NCBI GenBank assembly: GCA_044892505.1
Contig: CM097883.1
Location: 422,344,001-422,408,000, forward strand
DNA: 64,000 bases
Direction of reading: 5' to 3'
DNA from: Schmidtea nova
Taxonomy: Eukaryota
The notes under the pieces are model-generated. The model saw only the letters and a list, made by a program, of their open reading frames with translations. It made no database searches and was not told where the DNA came from. The position numbers were made by a program, and so were the translations under genes. Below are positions 1 through 63,663 of the stretch, piece by piece; positions within the stretch are counted from its first letter, which is position 1, and every line of letters begins with the position of its first letter.

Positions 1-1159
1 TCTTTTTCTAGGATCGGTCTCTCTTGGGATTTTTTGTGATTGATCCGGCAAGTCTCCGTTTGATCTGTGATTGCTCATCGGGTTCTTCTTTTGATATTGT
101 CACCATTATTTTTATATTCAGGATTGTTGGGATAAAGAGTCGATTCTTCATGATTCTCTTTGATGCATATACATTGATACACTGTCCGTTTATTCACCAT
201 TACGGTGTTATTTTCACAAGCAAATTTCTCATTTTTTACACCAATATTCTTGCACCCAGTTTTCTCTCTGCATTCTATTCGTTGACTACTAGTTTCACCT
301 TCTTACTTTAATTTTCCAGTTTTGTTCTCTGACGAATTTCTGTCTATTCTTATCCCATTTCTTGACTAAAGCTTGTTGTCAGTTCTTTCTTCTCTTCGTT
401 TTCTTTTCCCAATTTCCGTAATGTTCCCCTGGTTCTTGTAGTTTGCGTAAATTTCTGGTCTCCTGCTGTACTTCATACTGTCTTTCTTTGTATTTTAAAG
501 TTCTATAATATACATACCCCTGGATTTAATAATATGGTTATACATTTGATTTACACTATCTGTATATAGTCATATCCCGACCTCTATATCACGACTGTTC
601 TTTTCACTTCGTATTGTCTTGCATTTACTAATTCCTTTCATTTCCTTTTGTATCAAATTTTGTTTTGGCTTCATTTCTTTTCCTACCATTTCTAATACTT
701 TCGTTTCATTTGTCATAATAGATTTTCACTTTGTATCCCATTGTGGGTATTTTCATTAATTTGAAATCTTTGTATTGCTTGATTTGATACAATTAGCTTC
801 ATGTTATCTTTTCCGGATCTCCTCTCTGGCTTGATTTCCAATTCCATTTCCATTTTCTGTTCCGTCTTTCTTTGTGATGTGGTTCCATTTCTTGTGTTCT
901 GGGTTTCACAGTGGACGAGCTTGATGATTTCTTGATTTTTTCTAGTTTCTGTTTTTGAAATACATATACATTGGGTTTACATATAATTGTTTTATTATTG
1001 ACATACATTTCTTTAATTTCTACAAATATTAATACCATATTGATACATATACATTGAATTTACTATTTACAATTTATCCACTTTGTTTCTTTCTACACTT
1101 CACTCTTCATCACCTCATTGTTTGTGGTGAGCTTTTACGGTTTATACATTGTTTCCAAT

Positions 1160-3750
1160 CTCTACGTATTCTGATGTCGATTCTTCATACTTTTCATTTT
1201 CTTTTCCTTCAATCGTGCTATTTCTTGTAGTGCTAATATTAGTTGAGTTTGAAATCTGGTTATTATTTCTCTTTGTATAATGATTTCTTGTTGATAGTGT
1301 GAATAAACCGATTCATTTTGGTTAATTGTATCTCTGCTTTTACTTTCCTCCATCAAAATTTTCCGTATTTTCTTGAGATTGTTTACTTGACTTTCCAGCT
1401 AAATGATTTTGTCATCTTTCCAATCCATTCACGTTCCTTACTTGGTTTTGGTTTCCTTTACTTGCGTATTCCTTGTTGCTTTGATCAATTGTCACCTGAT
1501 TTCTTGTTGTGGTACACTGGAACGGTAAATGTCCTCCTTTTCCGCATTGGTAACACACTTGTTAACACACTCTTGCTAATCGTTTTGAATAATTCGAATA
1601 ATTTGAATAATTCGAATCGTTTTGAATAATTCAATTTTCGTAATGCCTTTCCGTTTGTTGGTTATTATTATCTTTGCATTCGAATTGTTTTATCTCTTTG
1701 GTTGTCTTTGGTTTAATTTCGTTACTGATTTTGTCCAGCTGATTTCGGTTTTCCTGTTGTTTCTTGCGATTCCAACAATTTCCTGTCATGTGCCCTTTTT
1801 TCCCACAGTTGTAACATCCTTGAATTCCACAAACTTTCTTTCCATGTCCTTTTCTTCCACATTTGGTACATATTTTATTTATAGATTATTCTTTGGCAAC
1901 ATTTACACCATTTGTCCTTTTTATATATATACTCTTCTTTTATTTCTTGTTGGCCTTTCTTTTCTTTCCTTCTTCTTCGTTTCTGGTTTGTTCTTTTATC
2001 TTCTAGACTTCTGTCGTATCGTTTATTATACTGACTGCTCGTTGTCTTTATTTCCCCTGACAAGTTGATTTATCGTTATATTCTCAATTTCTTCAATTAT
2101 TTCGCTTTCAATTATTACTTTTTTGTTTTGTTCTGTTTGATTGTCAATTTCCATTTTTCTTAGCATATTGATCCTTGGTTTATTCTTTTCGTGTTGTTTC
2201 AATAGTTCTATCTTTTGTATACACTTACTCCCATTCGCCAGTTTCTGCCTTTAGTAATTCTTCTTTTATCTTTCTCCAATGTTCCACGTTGGTAGGGGCC
2301 TGCCATTCTCCCAATTTGCTCCATTTGAATTCTTCCTGACGAGATTCTCTGATTGTAAAATTTTGTGGTTCTAATTGGCAACTTGTCATCATATTGATTC
2401 TCCCTGAGTCTCTCGTTAGTTGCTTTTCACTTTCGGTTAATTTTACGATCTTGTATTTTTTGCTTTTAATTGTTATCTGCTTGAGTACTCTCAAATTGCT
2501 CTTTCTTTCTTGGAATCTTCCTTATAATATACGAGCTTCATCCCCTTTTAGTTTGCTACTACGTTTGTCTCCTATTCTCGCTTCTTCTAATTGCAGCTCT
2601 AACCATTCTCGACGTTGTTTCTCTTACAATGTTTCTTCTGTTGATTTTGTTTCTATGGATGTCAATTTGTTTTCTTGGCTATTGTTGACCTCTCTTTAGT
2701 TGCAATATCGTTTTTGTTATGGTAGTAAATGCCTTTTGTATTTCCTCCACAACCATTCAAGGTAGTTCTATTCCCGAGGTTTTGGTATTCCTTTGACAGT
2801 CTCTATTTATATGCCCTTCTTGCTGCAGTCTTGTCCTTCTTTGTACATAACTTTGTTTGTTTTTTGATCGCCTTGGTAGTTTTCGGTTTCTATTTTATGC
2901 ATCACGCTAATTTTCTGTTGATTTGATTGCTGCGTTACCTTTGTCATCCCTTTGATTACCTCATTTAGTCTTGAGATTTCTTGCATTATTTCTATTTTTC
3001 TGTTATTCAGGTTGTTGCTCATAACGTTATTTTGATTATAACTGTTTATTCTGTTTCTATTGATCTGTTGCTTTCCTTGTAGATTGTTTTTGGTCCAATA
3101 TTGTCGTAATACATGTCCTAGTTCACTACAACTATAGCATCCACGTACTCCACATACTTTGTCAGAGTGTACCCACAACTCGCACTTCCCGCAATATTGG
3201 TTTTTATATCACTCACTCTTCGTATTTCCAGATTTCCCAGGTTTTCGGCATTGTTTGGTGTTGTTATGAATGTTATTGTTTCTGGATTTATTCCCGTTGT
3301 TGCCCATATCGTCGTTATTATCATTCCTCGTTTGTCTGTTTACAGTCCCTTGGTTTGTAGTCGTTGGATTAATTTGATTATTTTCGTCTTCTGATTTATT
3401 TGGTGTTGCTGTTACGGTTCTGATGTCGTTTTCCCCTATTTGCAATTTCTAGCGCGTCAGCCATTGTTTTACATCCTTTACAGCCCAGTTGACCTCGAAT
3501 TGAGCTCGTACTAATATTGCAGTCATTAATTCTTCGATCAAAGGATTCTCTTTGTTGAATGCTAGTTTGGCTAATTTTCTTAATTCACTCGCATATACTG
3601 CATTGGACTCGTTTTTCTTTTGTTTTCTTGCTGAAAATTCATCAAATGCTTGATTCAACACTTAATTTATTCCGAATATTTGTAAGAAAAAACTTTTGGA
3701 TATCTTCCCACGTCTCTGGTGCTTCTTTCTCCCCTTTTCACCTCCATATA
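1160..3750 (-). pseudogene. Decayed LTR-retrotransposon (Ty3/gypsy-like) gag region containing two gag-like units
   Basis: Minus-strand translation gives PETWEDIQKFF..AFDEFSARKQKKNES..YASELRKLA (Retrotrans_gag-like, about 3450-3720). Twin zinc knuckles occur at about 3110-3200 (CGKCELWVHSDKVC / CYSCSELGHVLRQY) and again at about 1765-1875 (CTKCGRKGHGKKVC / CYNCGKKGHMTGNC). Stops and frameshifts throughout. Confidence 0.7.
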
Positions 3751-4052: not shown

Positions 4053-4685
4053 TGTAAAGGTTATATCTTGTTATTAATTTTTATGATTATTATTGTCATT
4101 ACCATTATTATTATTGTTGACGTAGTCATTATTATGGTAGGTGTCCTTACGGACACCGGATGACTCCCCCTTTATTTATTTGGTATCTGTAAAAAAATTT
4201 ACAAAAAATAATTAAAAATTCAAATTCAAATGAAATAATAATAAGTATAAAAAATCCAATAAGTCAATAAAAAACGAAATCGATTGAAATTCTAAAACTA
4301 TAAGAATTCAAAAACTACAAAGATTCGAAAACTAAAGAAAATCTAAAGCTAAGAAAATCCAGAAACAAAACATAAAAGGATAAAAGAAAAACCAAGGAAG
4401 AATAAAATAAACAAAATTAAACGAGAAATATTATTGAAAAATCAAATAAGTCAAAAACATTAACAGATTTGGAATTTCGAGCAATAACCTACTTCGCGAA
4501 TATCGTGTTATGCTTTTTGTTTATTTTAAAAATAATAAAATATGTTATTATATTCATTTATATCTTGTTAAATTTTACTGATATTGTAATAACATACACA
4601 ATCACACATACACCACAATTACATAGCACGCACCCCAGCTGTCCCAAGACAGTTTCTTTTACCAGTGACTAGGCTGAGCTCTACA
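4053..4685 (-). repeat. Copy E1 of the stem-loop/G-tract repeat family (LTR-like, TGTA...TACA)
   Basis: Reverse complement starts TGTAGAGCTCAGCCTAGTCACTGG...TTGGGACAGCTGGGGTG and ends with AAAGGGGG plus an (AAT)n-like tail. Homologous to 40446, 56438, 60465, 62335 and 62915. Confidence 0.65.
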
Positions 4686-5229
4686 GATTTCATATAATCT
4701 TTATATATAATTATCCCTCAACATAATTGCAAATAACAAAATACTAAGTACAAAAAACCCTCCTAACTCTATTATCTAACTTGCTCTTTAAATTATGCTA
4801 AATTTTTTATTAAAATTCAACATTTAGAGTTTAAAATTTTTCCAAGGCCTTAGAAACGGCTTTGATTCAGTAAAACTTTCCTCTCATAATTTATAGTCGT
4901 CAAATTTCGATTTTTTAAAATTAGTTAATAATTTAATTCTTGCTTAAAATTTCTCTGTAAATTTAAATTAAACTTGAAGAAAAAAAACATTTAATTACTA
5001 ATAAAATTTGGTGTTTTAGTCCTTGTTTAAAATAACTAAAAGATTTCTTAGGCTCTTGTCTATTTATAAATAGTCGCAACCTGATTGGTTGCTCCTGATA
5101 TGGTAATTTATTATATAATATAATATGGATTTTCTAAATTTTCTTTTCAGTCATTCAGCGATTCTTGGATGGATTTTCCGATGTTTCCATACTAGGTTTG
5201 TCAATAAAGTATTGTTTATGTTTTCCAAG

Positions 5230-15301: not shown

Positions 15302-16389
15302 GAATTTATTTGAAATATTTTAAAAAAATTAGTAATACTAATTTTTTCACAAAATATAAATTATCAGAACTTTAATTCTACATTGAAAATTAAATTCAGT
15401 AATCATCATTCAAATAAAGTAATCAATTGATTCTAAATTGAAATTGAAATCATAATATTATAATTAAATTTAGTTATGACTTTTTATTTGGCAACAATTC
15501 AAATAAAATAATTTTTGCTAAAATCAAATACAATTTATTGTAACTAAATTTTAACACAATTAATATTTTATAAATACACGTTGATTCCATTTTAAAATTT
15601 TCAACTTATTTTTCTCATTTAATATTTTATTCAAATTATTGATTTCAGTAAATATTTTAAAGTAAATATATTTAAGATTAAAATTAGTGTCAATTTAATC
15701 TAAGTTTATTACTAAAATTTAGATTATTACAGTGATTATAATAATTTTTGGGCAAACTAATAAAAATTCTAATAACTTCCAAAGGAATTTCATTACAATT
15801 TTAAAGTAAACTAGGGAAAATTTATTGATTTATGATAATTGAAAGAATTTTGATGTCAAATAAAATTTAACAAGTATTTTATGTATTTAATTGGTTTTAG
15901 AAAATTAAATGAAGTTCAGGATTAATATCAAATAATGTTAGTAATTTGAAAAGTCCTTTACAGTAAATAATTATGTGTTAATTCAATATTTTTAGCTAAT
16001 TTAATGGTCAAAACTTTAAATTAAGATTATATCATATTTTAGGATGATTTATTGATTACTTTAGGGTAAAATATGAAAATCAAAGTCACTAAGCATGGTC
16101 AGTATAAGTTATAATGACTTGAATATTGGGTTTTGAATGATTTTTTGTCATTTAGGGTAATTTTTATGTGATTTTAAATCACGAATACATAGCTTTTTGT
16201 CATGATTTGTGGTCATTTAGGGTAATTGGTGATTCCATCAAAACGCAAAGCATTATTAAGAATTTTATTGTCAAATGATTCGAGCAAAATGTTTCGATAT
16301 TGGAGACAATAGAGCGATTTGACCAAGATTGTGTGTCGACAGAACTGAAGGCTCATCGTCATGAAATAATAAAGTTTCGAAAATAGAAA

Positions 16390-16850
16390 GGTCACAATTA
16401 AATTTATCTAATTTTACAATATCATCGATTCTTAGAATTATGATGGCAGCCTCAGTTGCAAATTTCAATGATTTAATTTTTGACATTGAAGGTTCGAAAA
16501 TTCCAGCTTCTTTGTTATTTGATACCTTGAAGTTAGTCAAATCTAATCCATACCATTTGAAACATGCTAGATCCGGAAATTGTTGGCTAGAATGATGCAA
16601 ATCACGCAATTTAGAAACCATTTCAGTAGAATCCAAGGCAGCATTGACAGCCAACTGCTTGGGAATAACCAACAAGGCTTTAGCGAATCCAGCAATTGCA
16701 ATTTGTTCTCTGGAACTAATCGTCATAGCATGTTTCTCAAGATATACATGCAAAGCGGCTTCACCACCAGGAACAACAGATTTACTTTCCAGTTCCCTTT
16801 TAACGACACAAAACGAATCATGCAATGAACGTTCCATTTCATCCACATAG
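16390..16850 (-). pseudogene. TCP1: Isolated 3' fragment (exon) of T-complex protein 1 alpha (CCT1)
   Basis: Reads DEMERSLHDSFCVVKRELESKSVVPGG---EAAL...SSREQIAIA.FAKALLVIPKQLAVNAA.DS...KWYGLDL...KSLKFATEAAIIILRIDD, matching the CCT-alpha C-terminus. Preceded by a TTTAG acceptor-like site. No upstream exons recognised. Three residues are missing from the conserved PGGGAVEA motif. Confidence 0.85.
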
Positions 16851-18150
16851 ACTAAACCGAAACCAAAAATACTTCCACTAAAAAACTTGGAATATTTAAA
16901 CAACAGACTTTTAAAAAATTCTCCCATTAACTCTAAAAAAACATAAAATAACCAAAATCAATCAAAAATTCTCTCACCACCTCCAATGCACACACATACG
17001 CACACGGACGCGATACAAATCTCCAGTACCAACAAAAACACAAATTGCGCACACAGACTACAAAGTCTGGTGCAACATTGACGAATCTTTATTGGTAATC
17101 TTTAAGTGATTTTAAAAAATATATATCACAACAGCTTTTTATTAACAATTTAATTAATTTTCTGATATTTTTTAATTTACCAGAAATTTAATGTAATGTC
17201 AATGATGAATTATGTGATATTTTAGTAAAGATATTTATAATATCAAGATTAATGAGAATTGATAAAATTTTGACTTTTTAATTAGGTATTTCATGTGGTT
17301 TATTAAGAGTTATTTTAAAATTAACGATATATTTGAGTAAGTTTTATTGAACTAAGAAGTTTGTATATTTATTATTTAAAATTTATCAATACTTTTATTA
17401 AATATATACTGATTTTATATAATTACGTGACAAATTGTCTTATAATTTTGAGAATACTAGGAAATATGAAGGTATAATACATTATAACGGTTAAATTGAT
17501 GATTTTATAGGTTTATTAACAGAATCTCTATTTGAGTTATATCATTTTGATATCGAACTTTAGTGATTTTTATTTTGAACAATGTATAGTAATTGTATTG
17601 AAGCATCAAGTCAATATGAAAATACTACATGCTTCGCAAATAATATAAATAGTGGAACGAATCGGGATAATTGAATTGATTGAATTTTAGTTTTTATTAC
17701 ATGTATTATTCAAACAATACATGAAAACAATATTCTCTAATGGTTTTACAACCTAGTGTTATTAAATACAATGACAAAGCATCTGTTTATACAAATGAGT
17801 TGGTTCTCAATGGTTGTCAATTTTTAACTAGTTGTCAAGAAATCACAACAAAATACTTTACTAATATCATATTGTATAACCAACTCTGCTATGTATGAAA
17901 AATTTGAAAGATTTAATAAATCAAATTTTTTTTAAAAATTGTCTATTTTATTTGTGTATTTTTNNNNNNNNNNNNNNNNNNNNNNNNNNNNNNNNNNNNN
18001 NNNNNNNNNNNNNNNNNNNNNNNNNNNNNNNNNNNNNNNNNNNNNNNNNNNNNNNNNNNNNNNNNNNNNNNNNNNNNNNNNNNNNNNNNNNNNNNNNNNN
18101 NNNNNNNNNACAAAAATCAAATAGATGTTAAAATTTTGATTATGAAAAGT

Positions 18151-39868: not shown

Positions 39869-40445
39869 TATTTTGAATCTCTACTGGAAGATTATCACCG
39901 ACCTGAAGTGGAAGCTGACAATATCTTCTGATATTGTGTTTGGATGTTTCTGTTTTCGATACAGTTGCCAGAGCTTCTAGATTCTAATTCGCCAAAGCTG
40001 CTTGTATGATCACTCTTGCTGGCTCTTCCGTTTCTTCCGCATGCCGTTTGATGGTTGATCGAATTCGAGCCTTCTCCACTTGACCAGTAGTTGAGGTTTG
40101 TGAATGTTGACATGGCGGCTTGATCATCACTCCATTTGCAGTATGACAATGACCTTAAAAGGAACGATCACAGCATCTCTATATTTCCTTTTGTTCAGTT
40201 TTTCTTTCCATGTTGTAAAGATAAACATCGTAGGCCAGCTTTCTTTTTCCTTTAGATTCCAAAAACTCCAGAGCCATATTCAGATATTTTGTATTCTTTA
40301 AATAAATATAGTGTTGCGACGTGTTGGAAAAAAAATTATATGGTAAGTATTGTGTGTAGTTTACGATGTTTGTTCCTATCACTATTGAAATGTTTTTTTC
40401 GTTATGTGTAATGTTATGTTGGTATTGATAGTTATTGTAGAAGGT

Positions 40446-41001
40446 TGTAGAACCCAGCAGAGTCTCCGGTAAAAATCTGTCTCGGGACAACTGGAGTTTA
40501 TGCTATATAAATGTATGTATTCGTGCGTGCGTATGTGATTGAATGCTTTAATCAAATTAACTAACAAATGATTATAATAAACAAAAGCAACTTTACAGAA
40601 CGATTTTTATTTAATCAACTAATAAAAAATACTACTCACGGTGAATGGAGTTAATAACAAATATCTTCTTTTTAATTTAATATTCTTTTGTAATTTTTCT
40701 TTTCTCTTGCTCGAACAATATTTTTTTGATTCTTCAATTTCCTTTTTTCGATCGTTAATTTTTCTTTTTGGCAACGTTTCTATGCTTCTTTTGGTTATCG
40801 ATTTCTTTTCGTATTTTTCAAATTCCTATAGTAATTTAATTACTAAAGAAATTTATTTTTTTAAATTTTATATTTAATGAAAAATAATAAGTAAATATAT
40901 AACAAGGGGGGTTATCATGTGTCCTACCGGACGCCCACAAAACTCACAGCGATAACAACAACAATTACCATAATAAAAATAATAATGATAATAACAGTAC
41001 A
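40446..41001 (+). repeat. Copy E2 of the stem-loop/G-tract family
   Basis: TGTAGAACCCAGCAGAGTCTCCGG...CGGGACAACTGGAG start, degenerate palindrome at 40820-40854, AAGGGGGG at about 40904, ends GTACA. Confidence 0.65.
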
Positions 41002-41060
41002 ACCTTTATAGTAAGCATTCCGATTCCAAGGTGTACACTAATCTCTGGTTTGCGCCCGTA

Positions 41061-54644: not shown

Positions 54645-56437
54645 CATTAGACCTTTTAGGTATTTATAAATACGATATTTTACACATAAAAATTTCTATC
54701 AAGGATTTTTAATTTACCGCTAAATTTACCGAGAGTTTTTTGCCAATTTACCGGTAAATCGGTATACAATCCCTAGTGCGAACTGAAGTCTTATCAAATG
54801 CTGCCCCCCACCCAATTAGTTCTATAACGTGGTGACGACAGGCCAGGAATAGAAGATCTTTGTTTAGTTTGTGCTCAATCAGAGAACATGCTCCCGAACG
54901 ATGACCAGTATTAGATGCTGTCATATCCAAAGAAAGAGCAGCGACCTGAACTTCAACACTCCACTCTTCCAAACATTGAACAACTGCAGATGCTTGGGCT
55001 TCACCTGTCCCAGCTGACAGCTTTGGGTCGCAAAGTAACTGTTCGACTCCAACACCTGAGATAAGGACTGGAAGACGATCTACATGTCCATGTGTCGATA
55101 AATCTTCTATCAGCTTTCCGTCTCAGTGAACCGTTAAAGGGACAGTTAATGAAAACTCTGATCGCAAACCGGTAGATCTGGCAGCCGATTACTTGCTCTA
55201 ACACGATGTATTGAGCTTCGGTTGATGTTTAAAGGATTAACATCATGGCCAAGCTGGAAGCTACTTCATTTAGGACGAATGTAGCATACCGTGATGAAAT
55301 CTTAGTTCTGTCCAAAGCTGATGTTAAACCAGGAGAAAGTACATTAATTTTTACTCCCTTGGACTTGGGTTCACCTGGTTGACTGCAAGTTTCGCTCTTA
55401 TCAGCGAACTCTTCTTCGTCAACCTCATCATCTGAAGATGTAGTGTCAAGTGCAGCCTGGGTGGAATATACTTCAATTTCCTCTTTTAGTTCTGCTTGAT
55501 AAATATCGCTTTAGTTCTGCCTCCTTCCGATCCTGATAACATTGTCTCTTTTATTCTTCAACCTTGCCAAGAGCCTCAATTTAAGCCTAATCGACCTTTT
55601 TGCATCTGAGAGAGGAGGAATGCTCTATCTTCAGGAATAGTCATCAAAGTGAGGGCATCCACATGAGCAATGTCAAATAGATTGTCAAGGCGTGCGATGA
55701 ATTCATCCTCCTTCGTCTTGTGTCCACTGGTTTCCCGATTCTTAAGTTTTTGTAGACCTTTCCATTCAACAAAAAATACTTCCAAGTTGTCGATGTTTGA
55801 CTACCCGAACCGGAATACCTGCCTTATTCCAAAATCCAAACATCTTTTCGATGGTTTGTCGACTAGAATCACGTACTGCTAGATTGTCAACTTTGTGAAG
55901 ATGCAGGAAATAACCAAAAGCTTGGTGATGTAGTGCACTTGTAGTATTGTAATTAAAGCTTAACAGACAGTGAGACACTGATACAGGTAAGTATTGCCTG
56001 GGCAATTCAACTGTAGCAACTAGAAATCACATGTGCTTTATTATAATATTTATTATATAAGCTTTTTGCGAATTTGCAGACACCAAATATTCTTTGCAAA
56101 GAATATTTATTATTAGGTGTCTAACTCAAGTTATTGTTAATACACGCATAGCTACATTACAGCATATTAAACAACATGCGAAACAAGTTTCATAACTTTA
56201 TTTAAATTTAACGGATTTGGTAAAACTTCAAAGCTCGAGGGGCACTTGTAAATATTGTCTAATTTACATGATTTTTAGCACATAATTTTATTTCTGTAAG
56301 TGAAATACATTGGAGGGGTGTCAGAAGATGATTTCAAACCTTCATTTTTAAGTTCCACCCTTTTATGTTTGATATGTTGTGATTTATTTATTGTGTTTAT
56401 TATTATGTCGAGAATGAAGGTGTGTTGAGGGAGACGT

Positions 56438-57121
56438 TGTAGAGCCCGATAGAGTCTTACAATATCGGTGTGCAGACACTCGGGGTGTATGCTGTGTAAT
56501 TAGGTGCCTGTATGTGTGCTTACAAAGACTTGAATAAAAAATATATAAACAACAAATTATAATGAAACTTTTATTATGTTAATAAACAAAAAGCTAAAAC
56601 CACGAAAAGTTACTTATAATTTTTAATTGGATTTGTCCTTGCCAAAATTTTCTTGTCAAGATTCTCAGTCTTTTTCTGTAGTATTATCTTTATTTCGGCT
56701 TGAAATATTCGACTTGAAATATTCGACTTGAAATGTTTGACTTTAATCCTCTTTTAATTTCTCCACCAACTGTTTCCACCAATATTCAGTTTTTAATTTT
56801 ATTAATCGATTTCCTTTTATTTGTCTGCTTCAGTTATACTCAGCTTCAGAAAAACTCATTTTTATATTTTTTAATTTCATAAAAAAAATCTATAGTATTT
56901 ATTTGTGATTTGGCTTACTATAGAATTTGCTAAAGTAAGCCAAATTCAAATTTTGAATTATAAATAATTATAATAATTACATTCTAAAATAAGTATGATC
57001 TTAACTCAAGCCATTATAATTAACACAGCGACCACACGAATAATTGAAGGGGGTTTCCGTACCCAAAATACTACCAATATTAGTAACGCAACAACAATTT
57101 CAAAGATTTCTGTACACTACA
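56438..57121 (+). repeat. Copy E3 of the stem-loop/G-tract family
   Basis: TGTAGAGCCCGATAGAGTC...GACACTCGGGGTG start, palindrome at 56911-56942, GGGGG at about 57049, ends CTACA. Confidence 0.7.
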
Positions 57122-57125
57122 CACC

Positions 57126-57161
<36 letters not shown>

Positions 57162-57163
<2 letters not shown>

Positions 57164-60100
57164 ACGGTGTAGCGTGGTCAAAAAATTCGGGGAGCCCCAA
57201 CCGAAAATTGTAACAAAAGTAAGATTCATGAATCAGTACATAAACTATTAAAAAACCTTTTAACGACGTTCAGTAGTAGGCATATTCCAAAAATGTGTCA
57301 ATGCTTCAGACAATGACAACTTTCCAGAGCGTTCACTCTCCACAGCGATTATCATCAGATCTCGTAACCTTTCCTGTGTCATTACCGTTCTTAGTCTGCT
57401 TTTAATAAATTTCAGAGCTGAAAAAGAGCGTTCACAGGCTGCCGAGGTGACAGGTAATGTGAGCAATAGCCGATACAGGAGTGATAAATTTGGATAAATC
57501 GCATGACTGTCAACTTCTAGCATTTGCAAGTAAACTGAATGAAGATATGAATGTTCATTTCCAGAAGAAGACCTCAATGAAGTGCGACAAAATAATCGGT
57601 ATTCTGATATTAGGTCATTTTCGTTAACGTCACCGTTATAAAAACTGCACAGAGTGCGGAGTGATAAGAGTTTCGTCACGTCCGGTTTTATAAGACAATC
57701 AATGGATTTTAGCATAGGTAGTATCTCAGTACTGAACCTGTTCCGGAGATCGTTGAATATAACGTCTAACGTTGAGAAGAAGAAGTTATATTTCAGTTAA
57801 TCCTTTCCGGACATAACCACTTAATTTCTCCAATTTTCATCAAGGCGACGGGACACTTTCCTTCGTATTGGTTCAGAAAACTCTTGGTCAATTGTGTCAG
57901 CCAGTTTCTCTGCTTTCATCCAGTATTCATCGAAGTGAGAGTTACTTCTTAGCTCCTGCAATTCCATTATCAATGATTCCACTTGCTGAGTGGCTACAGA
58001 GATATTTGTTGATGTTTTTTGCAAGACCTTGGAGACAACATTGCATAAACGCAGGATATCACTAAATACTGTTAGGCAAAAGCAAAACTGGAAGTCTATG
58101 GCTTTCAAGAGTGCATAGGCATCACTCACTGTAGCTCGGTCAAAATTACTCTCTTCAGTCATGCGCTCCAATGTCGTATTGACTGCGGGCAAAGTTTTTT
58201 CTAAGACAACACAGTTATCTAATCGCGTTGATCACCGAGTAGCACTTAAAGGACACAGTGTTCACTCTCCAGACTCCTCTCGGATGCCATTTCCTCTTGC
58301 ACTTCTTTAAAAAGACCGTGTCTCTTAGCTGAACCCTCCATCAATGAATAGAGGCGCTCCACTATACCGAAGAAGTTACGACCAACTGGGATAGTAGTGC
58401 ACATCTCCACAACAACTAAATTAAGACGATGGGCGAAGCAATGGACAAAATAAGCTTTCGGGGACATTTGCTTCACTCTGGCTTGCACGCCACAATACAT
58501 CCCTGCCACAGATGGGCAGCCATCATAACCTTGTCCACGTATATCTTCGAACTTCAAGTCATTCTTCTTTAGAACAGTTTCTAGCTCTGTAAAAATACTA
58601 CTCGCATCACATTTACCCACATGGACCAAATCCAATAGTGTTTCCACAACGTTCCCTTTCTTAGTAATGTATCGAAGGATAATAGATAATTGTTCTTGCT
58701 TACTGCAGTCAGGCGTCGTATCCATGCAAATCGCAAAGAACTTTGCCTCTTTCACTTCTTCAGCAACAGATTTTCGTATGACTTGAGCTACAGAGTGAAT
58801 CATTTCATTTTGAGACTGGGGTGACGTGTAACTGAGGTATGCTTTGGGATTATTGTTTGCTTTTTGGTGATGACTTGCTAGCTTAGGATTGACAGAAGAG
58901 CCATAATTTCCAGAAAGACACACCTGTTTGAAGATGTTACTTCTTCTTCATGTCCTCGAAAAGGTAGACGTAAGCGTCCAAGAGTACTGGTAATGTCCAA
59001 AAGAACAGGCAAAATTTCAAACCGTTCCTGGCGCTCCGCGGCTTCTTTATGTAACAGTCTTTCTCTCTCCTTATCAATTTGAGTGTCGACAGGCGTACAG
59101 TAGAGGGCATTTGTCCACCTTTCCATGTTCTTTAGGTGCTCAGCACTTTGAGAATGTTTGTCAAATCCTCGTCCTTTCGCCAACGCTCTTTCCCAACTCC
59201 GAAAACCCACTGTTTGGAATGAAGGATCGTATTTCTCATTCCCGAACACGCGACATGCGAAACAATAAGCAGCGTCGTTGCATTCATTGTATTCCAGCCA
59301 CGGTCGATTGTGCTTGGAAGGAACGAAGCTTCCCTTTCATAGAGGTTTGTGGGTACACTGATTTCTTGCTGCGAATAGGCCCTCGTCTAAATAAATTTAT
59401 AAAAAAAAATAAACATCATGCTGCCTATACGTTTCCATTAGTAATGGACCTAATATAATCATCTTTAGCATGTCTGTCACTTGGAATAGCAAACAGATTA
59501 TCATCAATTTATTACTTGTGTGTCATTTGCATTGGTACTTGATTGAGTGAATACATCTTCAGAATCATTCATATGTGCACGATCTGCATTTCTTGGTGTT
59601 TTAATTACAAAGTTGTTCATTATACCTTAAAAACAAAAAAAATTTTTTGAAATATATAATGAAATGTTAAATGAAAGTAATAATTAAAATCACAAAAATA
59701 CCTCTGTTATCCAGATAAAATAAGTCTGAAGTGAAGGAAACTTGTAAATGCACGATTCTCATATATTATTAAATAGTATAGTCAAACAAATATGACATTA
59801 GGTACCATTAAACACATTAGATGTGACTGTTAGTTTTCAATAAAATGATTTAAAGGAAGAATGAAAATACAAGTAAATAAAAATTGCAGAAATTATTTCT
59901 ACACTTAAACTGATACTAAAGCCAACGTTCATTTTATGATAAATTTCTTATTCAAAGCATAACATTCCTATTCCTATGACTTAGAAAACTACACAAAGAT
60001 GATATAAAAATGACTTCCAATTGAGCAAACCATTTAAACTGATGTTTCAAAAAATTTGAGAAAATAGAAATGAAAAAAAGTTTCTACTCAATGTGCTTAT

Positions 60101-60412
60101 TAACTGATTTTAAAAGTCTATGTAAATACAGCTCTGTCTTTGTTTCACTTGTTATGTATCAAATGTGATTTAATGGCATAGTAATTTAGTGTGGTCTGTG
60201 GGTTACATAAAACATTTTATTTGCTAAAACTTATGGCTTATAATAGTTAGTACATTTGGTCACAAAGAGAGCACTATTTTATTTAAAAGATGAAAACAGT
60301 CTTCTTTTATAAGCGAGTAAATGATTTCATAAATGTATATTTTTATACCCTCATATGAGGAAAATTTGGGGGAGCCCTGGCTCCCCCGGGCTCCTGTGGC
60401 AAGACGCCATTG
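57162..60412 (-). mobile_element. hAT Tip100/ZMYM1-like element, frameshifted, inserted in a (TA)n tract
   Basis: Imperfect TIRs CAACGGTGTAG / AGACGCCATTG with GGAGCCC subterminal repeats. TSD is obscured by the TA repeat. Confidence 0.8.
57260..59330 (-). pseudogene. ZMYM1-like hAT transposase fragments
   Basis: TTF-type finger RPWLEY...AYCFACRVF, FFAICMDTTPDCSKQEQLS, RGQGYDG, VHCFAHRLNL and LPVTSAACERSFSALK across four frameshifted ORFs. Confidence 0.92.
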
Positions 60413-60464
60413 TATGTATTTATATGTATGTACGACGCTGTATCTTGTGTGTGTAAAGAAATGT

Positions 60465-61553
60465 TGTAGTGCCTGAGAGAGTCACCTTTTAATTGTTGGG
60501 ACACTCGGGGTGTTTGCTGTGTAAGTGATTGTGGTGTGGTAAACTTTACAGTGACTGAATTTAAAATATAAATAACAACCGAATATCACAAACAATTGAT
60601 GACTTTAACAAATTTTATTAAGGAAAAATAAACTGAAAAACCACGAAATGTTACTTTATTATAATCTGTATATAGATAGTTCGACCCTGGACCTTCCGGA
60701 GATATTATGATATTAACCCGTTAACGCCCAATTTAAAAATTTTCCGATAATTAAATAAAATAAATAATAATTAAATAATTTTTTTCTCAAAATCTATTTT
60801 AAGAACTGAGATAAAAAAAATCATCCTTAGTTCAGTGTAGACTAAAGGACAAAATAATATTTTTTATATTGAATTTGAACATTATTTAATTGCTTAAATA
60901 AAAATAAAATCCTGGCGTCTTATAAATAGGACACTGGGATGTAACGGGTTAAATGGACAATTGGACCTGTTCAATATTTTGAGTTTGACTAATGGTATGG
61001 AATCAAAGGACTGTTGATATATTGGTGTTATTGCTGAGAGAGCTTGACTTTAAACAATAAGGATATTATACGTATAAATGGTTGTTGACGTTTCTTTTAG
61101 AATTTTCTAGATATATACTTTTCAGTTCTTGTCGGCTGTTTAATATTTTGTGTTGGGCTAATTATCTGGAATTGTTTGTCTGTTGATATCTTTATATTAT
61201 AATTGAGAGGACTTGACTCAAGAACAATAATCTTATAATTCAGATAATTGTTGCTTCATTTTTCCTTTAGATTAATTTTTCTTTAGTCTTCCTTTAGTTT
61301 AATTCTTCTAGTAGGTAAATTTTATCTATTTAAAATAATCAATTTCAATTTTCTTTTTCATTAGCTTACTATAGTATATTACTATAGTAAGCTATTTAAT
61401 TCAAATTAAAAATTTGGATTTTGTTAATTATAAATAATAATAATAAAAATAATCCCCTGACATAATGCTCCTAAATAATGATAAGGGGGGTTCCGATATA
61501 CACAATACCATCCACAATAATAATAATGAATAATTCCAATTATTCCTATACAC

Positions 61554-61556
<3 letters not shown>
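60465..61556 (+). repeat. Copy E4 of the stem-loop/G-tract family (contains a piggyBac MITE)
   Basis: TGTAGTGCCTGAGAGAGTCACC...GGGACACTCGGGGTG start, perfect palindrome at 61362-61394, GGGGGG at about 61485. Confidence 0.7.
60717..60948. mobile_element. piggyBac-type MITE (232 bp)
   Basis: TTAA at 60713-60716 and 60949-60952. TIRs CCCGTTAACGCCCA / TGGGATGTAACGGG. Confidence 0.8.
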
Positions 61557-62334: not shown

Positions 62335-62729
62335 TGTTGAGCCCAGCCGGGTCACTAGTAAAAATGTATCTTGGGAAGGCTGGGGTGAATGTTATGTTTT
62401 TAATGTGGGTGTTCTTGAGTGCGTGTGTATGTAGTGCAAACCTGTAGTAACAAATAACAAATTATTGAACATTAACTTTTAAAAATTGTATTTTTGCTAC
62501 AACAAAACGAAATGTAAAAATGTCTACTCACTAATTGTGGTAGAATAAGAATAAGGGATTTCTTTGAGTTTATTTTGATTGTCGAATTTGACTACTGTCT
62601 TCCCTCGAATATAAGAACCGATCCATCTATTCCGTGGTACCGTTATTTTGGTTTTAAGGAATTTTTTGCAAAAATTTCGAATAAAACAGCTTTCGAATAC
62701 AAGGACCATTCCCTGTATTCGAAAGCATG
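62335..62729 (+). repeat. Copy E5 of the stem-loop family (runs into a gap)
   Basis: TGTTGAGCCCAGCCGGGTCACTAG...TTGGGAAGGCTGGGGTG start. Confidence 0.6.
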
Positions 62730-62914
62730 NNNNNNNNNNNNNNNNNNNNNNNNNNNNNNNNNNNNNNNNNNNNNNNNNNNNNNNNNNNNNNNNNNNNNNN
62801 NNNNNNNNNNNNNNNNNNNNNNNNNNNNNNNNNNNNNNNNNNNNNNNNNNNNNNNNNNNNNNNNNNNNTTGGGTTAACTTGTTTTGACTTAGACTAATTG
62901 AGTGTTTAGAGATT

Positions 62915-63663
62915 TGTAAGTGCCCAAAAGAGTCTCCCAAAGAAATGAATTGTGGGGACAATTGGGGTGCAGGTTATATGTCTATTGTGTGCGTGTAATT
63001 ACAATAAATAACAACGATAAAATGAAATATGATATTATAAAAGTTTTATTACTTAAACTTATTTAAATCAAAAACCAACAACCACAATACAATTACTTTA
63101 TAATGAACTTAACAATTTCCTTTGTAGTTATTATTTTCTGGAACAGGATTTTCTCTAATATCAGTTAATTGTTTTGAGAGCTAACAGTTTCGGTAGTTAA
63201 ATGTGATTTGAAATAAATGGGATTTGAAATAAATGGGTGATTTGAAATAAATGATTTGAAATAAATGGGTGATTTGAAATAAATGTGATTTGAAATAAAT
63301 GGGTGATTTGAAATAAATGATAAATTTGATTGTTCAATGAGAAATTATCCAAATTGTTTCTGCTATCCTATAAAAGCTTTTATAGGCTTGTTGTTTGATC
63401 TTTTGCAAAATCTTTGATATTATAATAAATCTAATTCTTATTTAAACTTCTTTATTTGTTTCAATTATTTGTTTTTTTAAGCTTACTATAGTTTATTACT
63501 ATAGTAAGCTTAATTATTTTTAAATTTTAAATTTAAAAAATAATAATAAAAATAATAAATGTTTCTTTGCCCTTAATATGTAGGGATAGGGGGGTCCAAC
63601 TCCAATAATAACAATAAAAAATAAAAATAAAACGCCCCATGTGAAACAAAATCAACATACCCA
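62915..63663 (+). repeat. Copy E6 of the stem-loop/G-tract family (runs into a gap)
   Basis: TGTAAGTGCCCAAAAGAGTCTCCCA...TGGGGACAATTGGGGTG start, perfect palindrome at 63477-63513, G-tract at about 63589. Confidence 0.68.
63200..63319. repeat. Short minisatellite
   Basis: About 7 units of GATTTGAAATAAAT(G)(GGT), 14-18 bp each. Confidence 0.9.

Follow-up and report, generated by a model that had tools for sequence, protein, structure and literature searches.

A covarying stem-loop in the long terminal repeats of an abundant Ty3/Gypsy retrotransposon clade of Schmidtea nova

Six hairpin copies and the repeats that carry them

The window, meaning the whole stretch of 64,000 nt of Schmidtea nova DNA that was analysed, consists of decayed transposons in AT-rich sequence and lies on a contig of 456 Mb, the genome being AT-rich as well and 1.25 Gb in size. 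It contains six copies of a short hairpin, E1 to E6, and all six stems written out in an earlier sequence-only reading were found at the sequence given there. That reading missed the setting of the copies, which is that of long terminal repeats (LTRs). The features concerned are as follows.

56445 to 56484, minus strand: E3 hairpin
56363 to 57123, minus strand: E3 solo LTR of ~760 nt, starting with TGTGTAG and adjoining a (TA)n run
56570 to 56575, minus strand: AATAAA, putative poly(A) signal, ~88 nt 5′ of the E3 hairpin and followed by a U-rich tract
56608 to 56614, minus strand: conserved candidate splice-donor-like motif, here AAGTAAC (GTGAGT in other families)
56910 to 56943, no strand assigned: U3 palindrome of the GCTTACTATAG...CTATAGTAAGC type
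4634 to 4678, plus strand: E1 hairpin, within a solo LTR at ~4053-4765
40453 to 40495, minus strand: E2 hairpin, within an old solo LTR at ~40330-41007 (ends approximate)
60472 to 60509, minus strand: E4 hairpin, within a solo LTR at ~60413-61556
62342 to 62384, minus strand: E5 hairpin, within a decayed LTR, with GAA replacing GAC
62923 to 62966, minus strand: E6 hairpin, within a solo LTR at ~62869-63663

The fold of E3 comprises a 6-bp outer stem, a 1x3 internal loop of the U/UCU type, GUC/GAC, a 1-nt bulge and a variable loop, with a G·U pair in the inner stem on the minus (coding) strand. E2 has a coding-strand G·U too, in its outer stem. The E3 LTR is flanked by a 5-bp repeat, mismatched at one position, that may be a target duplication. 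The E4 solo LTR seems to hold a later insertion. DNA searches with E3 returned a dispersed repeat of 0.7-1.1 kb, often lying between (TA)n runs, and at L016/L019/L047 a pair of E3-like LTRs flanks gag-pol. As no primer site, polypurine tract or internal-region homology was found in the window, E1 to E6 are taken to be solo LTRs, and the six copies are probably inert relics.

A covariance model and an Rfam search had both been proposed with the sequence-only reading. The model, when built, returned E1 to E6 and nothing else in the window, its training set having held five of the six, with E6 represented only by close relatives. It also picks up old solo LTRs whose sequence has otherwise diverged. 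With the Rfam covariance models the window gave no hit at gathering score, nor did any of three full-length loci at E≤1, so that no known RNA family (ribozymes, TAR, snoRNA) is matched.

The window contains other repeats and gene remnants. The TA run that separates E3 from E4 has a decayed hAT-type transposon (57162-60412) inserted in it, and a piece of a TCP-1 chaperonin gene (16271-16957), devoid of introns, is found amid transposons. A decayed gag at 1-3700 is 77-79% related to a group of abundant elements (L073-L088), which have a Burro-related, gag-only frame of 1,020-1,035 aa with a 56-bp tandem array upstream and showed no pol frame within the 20 kb retrieved. The genome also has a Burro-type element with a 5,087-aa frame and 3.2-kb LTRs (Burro: PMC6431247), whose presence points towards a freshwater planarian. 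The gag beside E1 belongs to Burro-related elements that lack the hairpin, and a link between E1 and this neighbouring CCHC gag was rejected, since no BLAST match other than the self-match spans both.

The host retrotransposon

The hairpin is carried by an abundant Ty3/Gypsy LTR retrotransposon clade. The exact hairpin pattern has 4,628 genomic matches and a second, mutually exclusive pattern has 2,633, giving at least 7,261 copies in the genome, while reversed-pattern controls gave none. Matches on the same strand and 5.2-5.8 kb apart are numerous, and 28 regions with such pairs were retrieved for analysis of element structure. Direct repeats with the hairpin in both were present in 25 of these, one being a local duplication and not an element. 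The primer site TGGTGTCAGAAG directly follows the 5′ LTR in 23 of the 28 regions and a polypurine tract precedes the 3′ LTR in 20. The LTR pairs are mostly 97-100% identical, and 5-bp target duplications can be read at four loci (L127, L130, L131 and L165), those at (TA)n sites being unreadable. The order of pol domains is PR-RT-RH-IN, with a weak protease match (E 0.007-0.02), and a Gag motif of the form CX2HX9CX3C (CHCC) was identified in 22 of 29 loci. The gag-pol reading frames run on the CTACA strand. With LTR pairs, primer site and integrase present, identification as a Penelope/Naiad element, Helitron, DIRS or SINE was dropped; no GIY-YIG match was obtained in the ORFs scanned.

The primer site, usually only 12-13 nt long, matches a host tRNA gene with a CAA anticodon and an intron. 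This gene is probably tRNA-Leu(CAA), an assignment read by eye, ARAGORN not having labelled it Leu. Stretches of 30-50 nt of tRNA-Leu have been copied in at the primer site of some elements (L181:1498, L183:1498, L179, L180, L182, L184), often joined to rearranged sequence. The primer site and these tRNA-bearing copies argue against the self-priming envisaged in the sequence-only reading. A tandem array of ~900-nt units containing tRNA-Gly, the intron-bearing tRNA-Leu and tRNA-Gln is also present in the genome (L185, G000:C2 from 300.51 Mb); the pattern has 802 genomic matches, most of them, among the matches listed, in this array.

Shorter elements of 3.1 kb (L166, L168, L175) have LTRs 99-100% identical and a 658-aa Gag-protease frame. 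No match to RT, RNase H or integrase was found in the ORF of these elements, which keep the hairpin nonetheless. Among 95 LTR segments that lack a primer site on their downstream side, 49 adjoin a (TA)n run, a raw count from a partly biased sample, which suggests that a Gypsy integrase may target TA microsatellites.

Position, fold and covariation of the hairpin

The hairpin starts ~95-185 nt 5′ of the primer site and ends ~55-140 nt inside the LTR end. It is thus subterminal, not terminal as first described, and this distance speaks against the end-recognition role that had been suggested for it; integrase acts on double-stranded ends. AATAAA is present at -125 to -60 from the hairpin in 53/112, against a shuffle mean of 10 and maximum of 20, and a tract of ~50% U also lies upstream of the hairpin. 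In animal Gypsy LTRs generally, AATAAA is followed by a G/T-rich stretch that opens U5, as described in the available text of PMC3601003. As AATAAA and a U-rich tract precede the hairpin here, the latter probably sits in U5. A(A/T)TAAA occurs also 3′ of the hairpin in 38/112, being missing there from several full-length LTRs, and TATAAA upstream in 26/112. Recombination breakpoints, sought as a guide to the R boundaries, are scattered, with most of the clustering at the edges of the hairpin and the ends of the LTRs.

A donor-like motif is found 80-160 nt upstream of the hairpin in most of 81 variants, lying inside the LTR ~35-45 nt 5′ of the putative poly(A) signal. An intron running from this LTR donor to a leader AG was rejected, as a search for spliced retro-copies joining the two gave no matches and the leader TTTAG can be put down to a stem as well. 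Several other structures were noted in the LTR and leader. The U3 palindrome is conserved with a spacer of 2-8 nt (window 56910-56943, 61363-61394 and 63480-63512), and in several families a small hairpin lies ahead of a C-run near the LTR start. Two further putative hairpins are present in the leader, 40-130 nt 3′ of the primer site (L120, L127, L175 and others), in the classical position of a packaging signal. Compared by inspection, they change in matched pairs across three families, and one is capped by a near-fixed GAACACAGUA loop.

For analysis of covariation, 81 distinct variants were taken from 158 retrieved copies. On the coding strand these fold with an outer stem of 6 bp, an internal loop of U/UCU, GUC/GAC, a 1-nt bulge, an inner stem of 2-4 bp and a free loop, and RNAalifold returned this hairpin fold unprompted. 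The internal loop has U in 77 of the variants and UCU in 71, frequencies partly imposed by the search patterns. CCC/GGG and GTC/GAC served as search anchors, so that their invariance is partly built in, and part of the sample was collected with a pattern that also fixes outer pairs and loop.

The earlier observation that substitutions preserve pairing is borne out by this larger sample. Paired cells amount to 93.3% of 972 (81 variants x 12 pairs) as against 80.4% in shuffled controls (0/500), while only 22-51% of cells pair when partners are slid. Double changes occur at six of the 12 pairs, and six of the seven pairs left free by the collection pattern exceed 2000 shuffles. Shuffles were not exceeded by two measures based on the number of pairs or of pair types (434/500 and 75/500). 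The variants fall into few lineages, with ~7 independent double changes by our own count of stem types. Differing stem types ride on one Gag lineage (19 Gag rows, with three copies lacking a usable frame). In 22 of 22 full-length copies the two LTRs have an identical hairpin, and it can still be recognised between LTRs whose flanks are non-alignable.

Folding stability of E1 to E6 on the coding strand is unremarkable (z -0.7 to -1.8), and on the opposite strand only E6 stands out (z -3.3). The evidence for structure is therefore the covariation across lineages and not the stability of single copies, and it upholds the proposal that a single-stranded structure has been selected. When 450-530 nt of leader are folded and the primer site is blocked, the outer stem reaches a probability of at least 0.6 in 17 of 19 contexts; the hairpin is not the predominant fold in the other two.

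The ACA box of an H/ACA hairpin lies ~14 nt from a two-sided guide pocket. A hairpin of this type was rejected here, as ACA occurs ≤8 nt past the stem in 58 of the 81 variants and is missing in 23, and the internal loop is just 1x3. Outside this genome, the two viral-contig hits, which by our own reading appear to sit in mitovirus-like RdRp frames, gave no score with the covariance model, and neither did any of 17 pattern hits in metagenome contigs.

Possible roles and comparison with known systems

The hairpin would fold in the genomic RNA of the element, in U5 and just 5′ of the tRNA-Leu primer site, and the element's own Gag/RT would recognise it during packaging and at the start of reverse transcription. 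We favour this proposal tentatively, at a little less than an even chance, on account of the U5 place, the pyrimidine loop on interchangeable stems and the retention in RT-less elements. A U/UCU loop that is nearly fixed, on stems that can be exchanged, suggests recognition by a protein, retention of the hairpin in elements without RT suggests a requirement in cis, and the packaging and initiation role is put forward by analogy with retroviral U5 stems. In the RNA, a U5 element would be confined to the 5′ end, adjoining the primer. A packaging or priming-related role, as first suggested, stays the best guess once self-priming is set aside. The two hairpins downstream in the leader could do the packaging instead.

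Less probable, and on the whole unlikely, is an RNA element for control of transcription or of 3′-end formation. The hairpin would then either open R and resemble TAR, provided that the AT-rich motif upstream is a TATA box, or be a structure past the poly(A) site which, together with the donor-like motif, helps to choose between the signals of the 5′ and 3′ LTRs. The 3-nt UCU bulge recalls HIV TAR, and the upstream TATAAA would suit the first variant. However, a location in R would need the downstream A(A/T)TAAA that several full-length LTRs lack. The upstream position of the donor-like motif resembles foamy-virus U1 control as described in the available part of PMC3694450. Against the account, too, are the position of the upstream signal outside the hairpin and the failure to find any spliced retro-copy.

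Folding could also take place in the minus-strand strong-stop DNA, i.e. on the TGTAG strand, where it would aid strand transfer or RT pausing, though this is improbable given the direction of the wobble pairs. The minus strand is single-stranded during reverse transcription, and predicted energy is lower on the TGTAG strand in 69 of the 81 variants with RNA parameters (-15.0 vs -13.0 kcal/mol) and in 60 with DNA parameters. At the position that closes the loop, 37 of the 81 have A·C on the coding strand, which becomes G·T on the opposite one; over the seven free pairs there are 62 A·C cells against 36 G·U cells. Inner pair 2, however, has both Watson-Crick states, in two stem families, and its genome-wide wobbles number 891 for coding-strand G·U and 14 for the opposite strand, counts inflated by amplification of few masters. 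The 891 include many LTR pairs, whereas all 14 are single. Coding-strand wobbles are the intermediates both in A-U / G·U / G-C and in C-G / U·G / U-A. Folding of the TGTAG strand had earlier been deduced from T:G pairs in E1 and E4. These pairs exist, but are private mutations found in one of the 81 variants each, that of E4 being a CpG-type change, and the coding strand is CTACA. On balance, selection appears to act on the genomic RNA, that is, on the coding strand.

Slightly less probable again is a primer switch, in which the 5′ arm would mimic the D arm of tRNA-Leu and mask the 3′ arm, the latter pairing with the D arm of the primer. The commonest hairpin type aligns with the 5′ half of tRNA-Leu at a local score of 17.5 as against 11.3 for shuffled sequence (0/100), with tRNA-Gly and tRNA-Gln controls at 9.9 and 13.7, in a comparison that was made post hoc. 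A 9-bp duplex is possible and would complement the short primer site, but its energy is not above that of shuffled tRNA (26/200). The AAT and AGC types, moreover, have no tRNA resemblance (14/100 and 20/100) and occur in copies with near-identical LTRs. If true, such a switch would license reverse transcription from a short primer site; an animal Gypsy element would then possess a switch for primer activation that can be read from natural variants in their thousands. The least probable account, in which the hairpin is either an element of duplex DNA (a core promoter or a site for a protein) or a palindrome inherited neutrally, has in its favour a TAYAYA-like motif ~10 nt upstream, a YCA initiator-like motif just 3′ and the relatedness of all copies, but is ill-fitted to the variable loop length, the double changes at six pairs, the strand-asymmetric wobble and a hairpin that outlasts alignable flanks.

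HIV-1 TAR is a ~45-nt LTR stem-loop with a UCU bulge that starts R and has a fixed loop. The hairpin preferred here as a Gag/RT handle is like TAR in being a stem-loop of ~45 nt with UCU, and differs in its free loop, its probable place in U5 and its lack of an Rfam match. No paper on it was found in the literature searched, and we regard it as a real and apparently undescribed RNA element of LTRs, its kind being already known. Good maps of cis-acting RNA structures exist for retroviruses and for the Ty elements of yeast but, to our knowledge, rarely for animal Gypsy elements.

By its Gag motif and the published description, the element appears to be CsRn1-like. As far as the available text of the sources goes, it shares with the CsRn1 clade of Ty3/Gypsy (CsRn1, PwRn1, AgCR) the CX2HX9CX3C Gag knuckle and the D(T/S)G protease motif (PMC2582038, PMC3601003), with gag and pol forming a single fusion or occupying two frames, and its LTR start, TGTG(G/A), is close to the TGTGGYG reported for CsRn1. 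Unlike that clade, which is primed by tRNA-Trp, it would use tRNA-Leu, and about half of its insertions abut (TA)n. The LTRs are 0.7-1.0 kb long, where the published training set averaged 330 nt, and a hairpin of this kind is absent from the descriptions of the clade in the same available text. RT homologues, among the matches listed, are mostly unnamed and 39-54% identical. Insertion into (TA)n microsatellites is also described for the Naiad Penelope-like elements in the available text of PMC8557442; unlike Naiad as described there, the present element has true LTRs, a primer site, a polypurine tract and a DDE integrase.

Parallels to the hairpin lie in retroviral leaders. Retroviruses initiate via U5 structure and extra primer contacts, as set out in the accessible portion of PMC3185550, and the avian U5-IR stem, the U5-TΨC pairing and the helix formed by the primer activation signal of HIV-1 resemble the present hairpin in being leader structures 5′ of a tRNA primer site (PMC3185550, PMC3601003). 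The likeness meant is one of structure and place, the hairpin being self-contained and 55-140 nt from the LTR end, unlike the retroviral U5 pairing across the primer site described in these sources. With more than 7,000 copies, the genome offers natural covariation for a U5-type hairpin, more hairpins lie further down the leader, and in a flatworm-type clade the signals for packaging and for initiation become directly testable.
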